NCBI RefSeq assembly: GCF_032062105.1
Contig: NW_026936003.1
Coordinates: 434,001 to 498,000 of the forward strand
DNA length: 64,000 nucleotides
Source: Saccostrea cucullata
Taxonomy: Eukaryota
Direction of reading: 5' to 3'
Both the position numbers and the translations under genes were made by a program. Numbering within the stretch: the first letter of the stretch is position 1; the number at the start of each line of letters is the position of its first letter. Below are positions 31,289 to 31,841 of this stretch, one piece after another. A model generated the notes under the pieces. That model saw only the letters and a list, made by a program, of their open reading frames with translations. It was not told where the DNA came from and searched no databases.

Positions 31289-31841
31289 TGCGATAGAATT
31301 ATCGCATTTATAACTTGATAGAATTATCAAGATTCAGCACTGATCAAGACGTGATAAAATTATCACTAACTGCGATAGAATTATCGCATTTATAACTTGA
31401 TAGAATTATCAAGATTCAGCACTGATCAAGATGTGATAAAATTATCACTAACTGCGATAGAATTAACGCATTTATGACTTGATAGAATTATCAAGATTCA
31501 GTACTATTGAAGACGTGATAAAATTATCACTAACTGCGATAGAATTATCGCATTTATAACTTGATAATTATCAAGATTCAGCACTGATCAAGACGTGATA
31601 AAATTATCACTTATTGTAAAGCATAGCAATAGAATTATCGCATTTGTAACTTGATAAAATTAACAAGATTCAGCACTAATGAAGACGTGATAAAATTATC
31701 ACTAACTGCGAGAGAATTATCGCATTTATAACTTGATAGAATTATCAAGATTCGGCACTGATCAAGGCGTGATAAAATTGTCACTTATTGTAAAGCATAG
31801 CGATAGAATTATCGCATTTGTAACTTGATAAAATTATCAAG
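31289..31841. repeat. 82-bp tandem repeat (~6.5 units), each unit containing three palindromes
   Basis: Units start at 31289, 31371, 31453, 31535, ~31625, 31707 and ~31799; each has TGCGATA-GAAT-TATCGCA, CTTGATA-GAAT-TATCAAG and GTGATA-AAAT-TATCAC. Confidence 0.92.

Follow-up and report, generated by a model that had tools for sequence, protein, structure and literature searches.

An intronic row of short hairpins ahead of gag in an Ngaro-like retrotransposon of Saccostrea cucullata, a candidate tag on unspliced element RNA

Results

The array lies inside a tyrosine-recombinase retrotransposon

The window, by which we mean the whole 64-kb stretch of DNA analyzed here, carries on its minus strand, from 33214 to 26169, a 7-kb Ngaro-like tyrosine-recombinase retrotransposon that is the host of the hairpin array. 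The ends of the element are split direct repeats in the order A1...B1-A2-B2, in which B1 and B2 are near-identical and A1 matches A2 at every position. On the element strand, the order is hydrolase, array, gag, reverse transcriptase/RNase H (RT/RH), and tyrosine recombinase (YR). From the 5' to the 3' end of the element, the features are:

33032–33214, minus strand: split direct repeat A1 (element 5' end), 183/183 identical to A2; similarity among copies stops at 33214
32930–32935, minus strand: GTAAGT ahead of the hydrolase ORF, a candidate for the first splice donor, proposed from sequence; no read joint starts here
32203–32799, minus strand: SGNH/GDSL hydrolase ORF, broken in the window copy, located by tblastn, the query being the ORF that is open in sister copy L040
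31971–32040, minus strand: small non-coding exon of ~70 nt that ends at the donor of the array intron; donor side from a read joint, acceptor side from five loose-ended reads of one run
30396–31970, minus strand: GT-AG intron holding the array, with a branch-like CTAAC; acceptor 2 nt ahead of the gag ATG
31289–31841, minus strand: the hairpin array, with 20 short stem-loops whose 6–7-bp stems are of three types and whose loops read AUUC/AUUU on the element strand
30613–31183, no strand assigned: insertion of 570 bp into the array intron, including a poly(A) run of 28 nt; only in the window's subfamily, ~ten loci
30545–30562, minus strand: extra hairpin with the array's loop and a non-GATA stem that includes a G-U pair; this type is in 23/34 introns and is fully Watson-Crick in 3
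30463–30480, minus strand: solo hairpin of a fourth type, with CT/AG outer arms, ~70 nt ahead of the acceptor
29940–30393, minus strand: decayed gag (tblastn); the zinc-finger end and the RT start (~640 bp) are deleted
29090–29937, minus strand: decayed reverse transcriptase/RNase H (tblastn; Pfam RVT_1 and RT_RNaseH on sister copies)
28226–29075, minus strand: decayed tyrosine recombinase (tblastn, E 8e-102)
27410–28183, no strand assigned: 153-bp tandem repeat in the 3' non-coding part
26721–26999, minus strand: split direct repeat B1, with a palindrome at 26906–26923
26545–26727, minus strand: split direct repeat A2
26169–26446, minus strand: split direct repeat B2 (3' end), with a palindrome at 26353–26370

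A preliminary description of this DNA had put the array in the place where gag would be expected, which proved incorrect, as decayed gag starts at 30393 and lies downstream of the array on the element strand. Pfam Lipase_GDSL_2 matches the hydrolase of L040 with an E value of 4.8e-6, just below the curated cut-off, which the relative L032 exceeds. Phage-integrase families of Pfam match sister and related copies, in all cases below their curated cut-offs. No methyltransferase family was detected by Pfam at E 0.1 on ORF2 of L031 (748 aa) or L036 (882 aa), which separates these elements from PAT-like ones. By its split repeats, its gene set, and the lack of a methylase, the element fits the Ngaro-like class as defined in the cited parts of PMC9210276, PMC6681497, and PMC7192593, except that its hydrolase comes first; the RT tree comprises elements of this genome.

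A Fibrinogen-C domain gene (24280–25863, minus strand) adjoins the 3' end of the element, and two identical 129-bp copies with a tRNA match at 34288–34643 (Rfam, 58.8 bits) probably represent a short repeat derived from a tRNA. Other frames in the window encode vWA (459–1322) and C1q (9506–10000) domains, and ~10 kb of coding tandem repeats of 87/174/348 bp (48952–58808) give DSL/EGF-like Pfam matches and change frame along their length. A 166-bp repeat makes the host look like a bivalve of the oyster type. In sister copy L046 (G000:C20188), gag is interrupted at about 2800–6930 by a 4.1-kb insertion, probably a DNA transposon, with 320-bp terminal inverted repeats of 10-bp GATA-rich units.

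Three types of palindrome make up the array, which recurs in other copies of the element

The existence of the array is confirmed. The ~20 GATA-N4-TATC palindromes of the preliminary description were found to be exactly 20, at 31289–31841, arranged in the sequence A-B-C (7 A, 7 B, and 6 C); 14 have a perfect GATA-N4-TATC core, five have one core substitution, and one lacks two bases of the loop. Three hairpins do share a repeat unit of 82 bp, to which we add a 92-bp variant, and the three self-complementary pairs of outer arms (TGC/GCA, CTT/AAG, and GT/AC) were also recovered as described, with AGC/GCA replacing the first pair in two units. In the 64-kb window, exact matches to GATA-N4-TATC number 18, compared with 1.3 expected (100 shuffles, maximum 5). 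When 26000–34800 was compared with the covariance models of Rfam 15, no match fell inside the element and two tRNA-like matches fell outside it. Terminal repeat B holds, at 26353–26370 and 26906–26923, a palindrome with 7-bp arms that has the GATA core of the array but another loop.

A genome search for the array gave at least 47 matches on at least 40 contigs, and the number of hairpins per array varied from about 3 to 35. Element sequence flanked the array on at least one side in all 38 contigs checked of the 40 found; in the remaining two, the array lies between the same splice sites as in the window's element. These results establish that the array belongs to the YR element, as had been claimed, and occurs in its other copies, and the presence of element sequence beside it in 38/38 contigs rules out an independent satellite or nested transposon. 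Five other GATA-N4-TATC loci, drawn from the first 100 of 1038 matches, consist of other sequences, with no element proteins within ~5 kb. Unrelated satellites of 21, 33, and 40 bp that contain GATA-N4-TATC (L067, L068, and L069; G000:C6378, C6262, and C7065) lie outside YR elements.

Splicing ahead of gag removes the array

Evidence for splicing came from mapping to sister copy L046 one contig set and three runs of poly(A) RNA-seq, the latter from a single study; the library was unstranded and of low depth, and its reads derive from many decayed copies. A read joint between L046 positions 7389 and 8054 skips 664 nt, including the array, and has GT-AG ends on the element strand. Seven reads support this joint, six of them (with five starts) in run X21 and one in X23, and more loose read ends fall at the acceptor in X21 and X22. 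The 7-read GT-AG joint, which comes from one study of low depth and is absent in a second family, confines the array to the unspliced transcript; the second family is the intact family L036, on which the same runs gave no splice joint to gag. Loose read ends also delimit the 70-nt exon upstream of the array intron. This small exon (window 31971–32040; L046 8054–8124) is joined to non-element sequence on both sides by 6, 15, and 5 loose-ended reads, which suggests exonisation into host transcripts.

Among 38 loci, 31 have an intact donor motif and 33 an intact acceptor motif, and the array intron is kept in 36/36 contigs that have both the small exon and the gag start, with 664–1753 nt between them. 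Spliced RNA would still hold both terminal repeats, yet searches for intron loss, in each of which 40 candidates were scored, revealed no exact loss in the 36 contigs. Hydrolase and array are both missing from L038/L039 and from L043/L044, probably two allelic pairs, and the deletions in these copies do not match the splice sites. As a simple donor score failed to place the read-supported donor first, we claim no donors for other families.

Pairing rather than arm sequence is constant

Sorted by the two bases beyond the core, the hairpins of 38 loci are mostly of four complementary types, which account for 178, 163, 151, and 30 hairpins (522 in total), and ten other listed types of outer arm account for 15 hairpins altogether. 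In 162 A-B-C segments from 36 loci, the minor-letter fraction was 0.016 in stems, 0.023 in loops, and 0.092 in spacers. Rare changes per site were spread evenly (0.92, 0.83, and 1.07, respectively), and a test of distinct variants in stems versus spacers was not significant (p 0.41; by sites, 7/38 versus 12/28, p 0.053). In 34 introns (of 41 loci), the AUUH loop is also found on non-GATA stems; two of these, in 23 and 19 loci, include a G-U pair on the element strand, and one, in 19 loci, is fully Watson-Crick. Because the same loop is set on non-GATA stems in the same intron, GATA is not the invariant; the constant feature is pairing and not arm sequence.

The preliminary description had held that symmetry itself was maintained before the array was amplified, and had called for a covariation analysis across family members. 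Pairing does stay constant, but maintained symmetry as the only explanation is too strong a claim, since template switching homogenises the arms of inverted repeats and inverts the spacers between them (cited parts of PMC8604942), and covariation by itself is therefore no proof of selection. Copies within the window's family have simply inherited their arms, and the covariation is found between hairpin types and between families.

Other families of the genome carry different hairpins in the same place

From 150 scored matches out of 1041 candidates in a search with reverse transcriptase, we took 80 loci for their closeness or their long open frames. The hydrolase lies upstream of RT in 49 of the 80, and these 49 loci represent 18 families, with L041 merged into the window's family. 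Hairpins with Watson-Crick pairing and three or more repeats were sought in a strict scan, which scored the hydrolase–gag spacer in 11/18 families, the 3' non-coding part in 3/18 (p 0.015), and RT in 0/18. In a relabelling control, 6/18 spacers had repeated hairpins (versus 11, p 0.18), a comparison that is unclean because relabelling makes G-U an allowed pair. By eye, a repeated stem-loop motif is present in the spacer of all 18 families; the absence of by-eye motifs elsewhere is partly circular because the motifs were picked from spacers, and the strict scan is the unbiased count. Repeated hairpin cores also follow the recombinase gene in the 3' non-coding parts of three families (L115, L118, and L031).

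The cores of these other families are unrelated to that of the array, and loops are asymmetric and range from 4 to about 19 nt. Several families set one loop on different complementary stems, and sister lineages on the RT tree, which comprises elements of this genome only, share loops on different stems (L128/L133, L119/L132/L130, and L036/L098). C(UUCG)G, the most stable RNA tetraloop, occurs 7, 7, and 4 times on the element strand in the spacer of one family and never on the other strand. The L128/L133 spacers share a loop whose reverse complement is the loop common to the L119/L130/L132 spacers; template switching that inverted the spacer could be one cause.

A YAG lies no more than 10 nt ahead of the gag ATG, which we chose by eye as the point where the basic N-terminus begins, in 18/18 families, compared with 144/626 other ATGs. 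The Gag proteins of intact relatives have a CCCH-type finger at their end. A metagenome scan with the hydrolase alignment gave no relative, so that what we show holds within this genome.

Neither mismatch type nor folding picks a strand

Mismatch type picked no strand, either across families (G-U versus A-C 23:14, p 0.19, with one motif counted twice) or in the array of the window's family (32:29). Folding z-scores favored the element strand in 8/18 families (p 0.30), and ViennaRNA energies of the UUCG hairpins favored it in only 2/7. RNA folding had been proposed as a check on the array; the two strands of the window array fold alike, and folding thus names no strand.

The window's subfamily lacks the Gag finger and the RT start

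A segment of ~640 bp spanning the Gag finger and the RT start is absent from the window's subfamily and present in 10 older loci only. Despite this missing segment, the A1 and A2 repeats of the subfamily are identical, and because it is without Gag finger and RT start and yet spread recently, the subfamily appears to have moved in trans. Exact matches to the palindrome number 3–11 per locus in five older loci and mostly 13–29 in the others, a difference that is only suggestive of larger arrays in the window's subfamily because subfamilies are few and older copies decayed. A search of the genome for an autonomous partner, that is, an intact helper with this array, found none, and the closest intact family carries another hairpin. 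An intact copy of the window's family was likewise not found, the 10 loci with the gag-end/RT-start segment being broken or truncated where examined.

Discussion

A putative structure-based tag on genomic RNA

We propose, with a probability of roughly 0.5, that the array tags unspliced genomic RNA by its structure and that Gag, its likely binding partner, thereby selects this RNA for reverse transcription. Its short stem-loops, which would form and act as RNA, would arise within the intron and thus be carried by the unspliced full-length transcript only, and gag would be expressed from spliced RNA. Many copies of Gag might then bind the row of hairpins, probably through the CCCH-type zinc finger, and the full-length RNA would be chosen for reverse transcription. 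Intron-less copies would fail to accumulate under this scheme because genome RNA would be picked via its intronic hairpins, and the defective subfamily in the window may use an enlarged array to borrow helper proteins in trans. The reverse-complement loops of two clades count against a Gag-bound tag, as they are awkward for a strand-specific RNA loop; so do the lack of a strand signal in mismatches and folding, the lack of a joint to gag in L036, the non-significant test of distinct variants, and the result of the relabelling control, and virus-like packaging of Ngaro elements is not established in the cited parts of the literature. One suggestion of the preliminary description, an RNA stem-loop array for packaging by a helper element, survives in its first half as our best reading, but the intact helper was not found.

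Intron position and hairpin structure would agree equally well with RNA hairpins that control intron retention or nuclear export in the manner of a CTE or RRE, by way of a host or an element protein. An unspliced RNA with two introns must exit the nucleus, and the basic N-termini of Gag resemble localisation signals. We nevertheless judge this explanation unlikely, since under a host export factor a single motif should be conserved, whereas both loops and stems differ among families, and the hydrolase, which retains its four catalytic-block motifs, does not resemble an RNA adaptor. The RRE, CTE, and RTE export elements share with the array that they are structured and confined to intron-retaining RNA, but they are single large folds with one conserved receptor, and the array is made of tiny hairpins in a row, specific to each family.

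The possibility that the array works as DNA, as an enhancer or internal promoter built of inverted sites for a GATA factor or another dimeric factor, draws on the GATA-factor consensus WGATAR, which types B, C, and D fit with TGATAA and TGATAR on their two strands. It would also accommodate mismatches without strand bias and a loop in one clade that is the reverse complement of that in another. We think it rather improbable, because the array's loop sits on non-GATA stems in the same intron, the cores of other families are unrelated and their loops, 4 to about 19 nt long, are asymmetric, and protein half-sites do not need complementary outer arms. As a general rule, a GATA-factor array is rejected, given that type A has CGATA, the loop also occurs on non-GATA stems, and other families are without the core. 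Sites for tyrosine recombinases of the loxP/dif type have 11–13-bp arms and a 6–8-bp spacer and lie at recombining ends; the 6–7-bp arms, 4-nt spacer, and internal position of the hairpins here rule out such a site. The earlier suggestion of a binding platform for a GATA factor or a recombinase consequently fails as a general rule.

Slightly less probable again is that the symmetry is a by-product, with template switching perfecting inverted repeats, slippage amplifying them, and the intron merely tolerating the result. Template switching would account for both the covarying arms and the inverted loop (cited parts of PMC8604942), hairpin number varies freely from 3 to 35, and unrelated satellites with GATA-N4-TATC do exist. 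Such a process would not, however, explain why repeated hairpins concentrate in the hydrolase–gag spacer across families, why stems and loops are more constant than spacers, why no exact intron loss occurs in 36 contigs, or why stems with G-U pairs are widely inherited unperfected. Least probable in our estimation is a role in single-stranded cDNA, where the folded hairpins would be bound by RT or the tyrosine recombinase. DIRS-1 produces linear single-stranded cDNA (cited parts of PMC7192593), repeat B has a similar palindrome, and a strand bias is absent; against this, the array is internal and distant from the recombining ends, the palindrome of repeat B carries another loop, and neither the intron position nor the UUCG loop would call for explanation on DNA.

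Comparison with known systems

Xenopus DIRS-53_XT, as presented in the cited parts of PMC9210276, has in common with the window's element the split direct repeats A1...B1-A2-B2, gag, RT/RH, YR, an SGNH hydrolase ORF, and the lack of a methyltransferase. Its hydrolase follows YR, whereas that of the window's element is 5' of gag, and a used splice acceptor ahead of gag and an intronic hairpin array, both present here, are not mentioned for it in those parts. Dictyostelium DIRS-1 is a member of the same retrotransposon order. Its reverse transcriptase is able to work in trans, and proteins are suspected by the authors to occupy the 5' end of its transcripts (cited parts of PMC7192593). By contrast with the window's element, DIRS-1 has inverted terminal repeats and an ICR, a methylase, and no hydrolase, and the same parts mention no native intron or array. 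Our literature search yielded no account of arrays of this kind or of Ngaro elements that are spliced and have the hydrolase first, and the cited part of PMC8547959 mentions neither; the founding papers of Goodwin, Poulter, and Butler and Repbase may cover the gene order.

Retroviral psi also consists of short stem-loops or palindromes upstream of gag, and that of Moloney MLV comprises a pair of GACG-loop stem-loops and the palindromes PAL1 and PAL2 (cited parts of PMC3265304 and PMC5035971). There, psi is bound by the Gag zinc-finger domain and favors unspliced RNA, whereas binding of Gag to the array is putative. The window's element further differs from retroviruses in making gag from spliced RNA and in having, as its signal, a tandem row of 3–35 near-identical hairpins, and psi of some retroviruses is partly on spliced RNA.

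Implications for Ngaro-like elements

A wider and more tentative version of the RNA-tag proposal, which we hold to be possible but by no means probable, is that an animal Ngaro lineage makes its gag-pol from spliced RNA and marks its genome RNA, in the retained intron, with family-specific hairpins, akin to those of MS2, that are read by a co-evolving Gag finger, and that defective subfamilies enlarge the array and outcompete their helper. Gene expression and the choice of RNA template are a largely untested field in retrotransposons of the DIRS order, and the array offers a concrete cis-element that can be tested there, in a spliced gene architecture common to many families of one genome. The natural variation, in which loops are kept and stems are swapped, suggests a small module that binds RNA. 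Should Gag fingers indeed read the loops family by family, these elements would provide candidate orthogonal pairs of RNA hairpin and protein, or tags, as well as a model of parasite–helper competition among retroelements.
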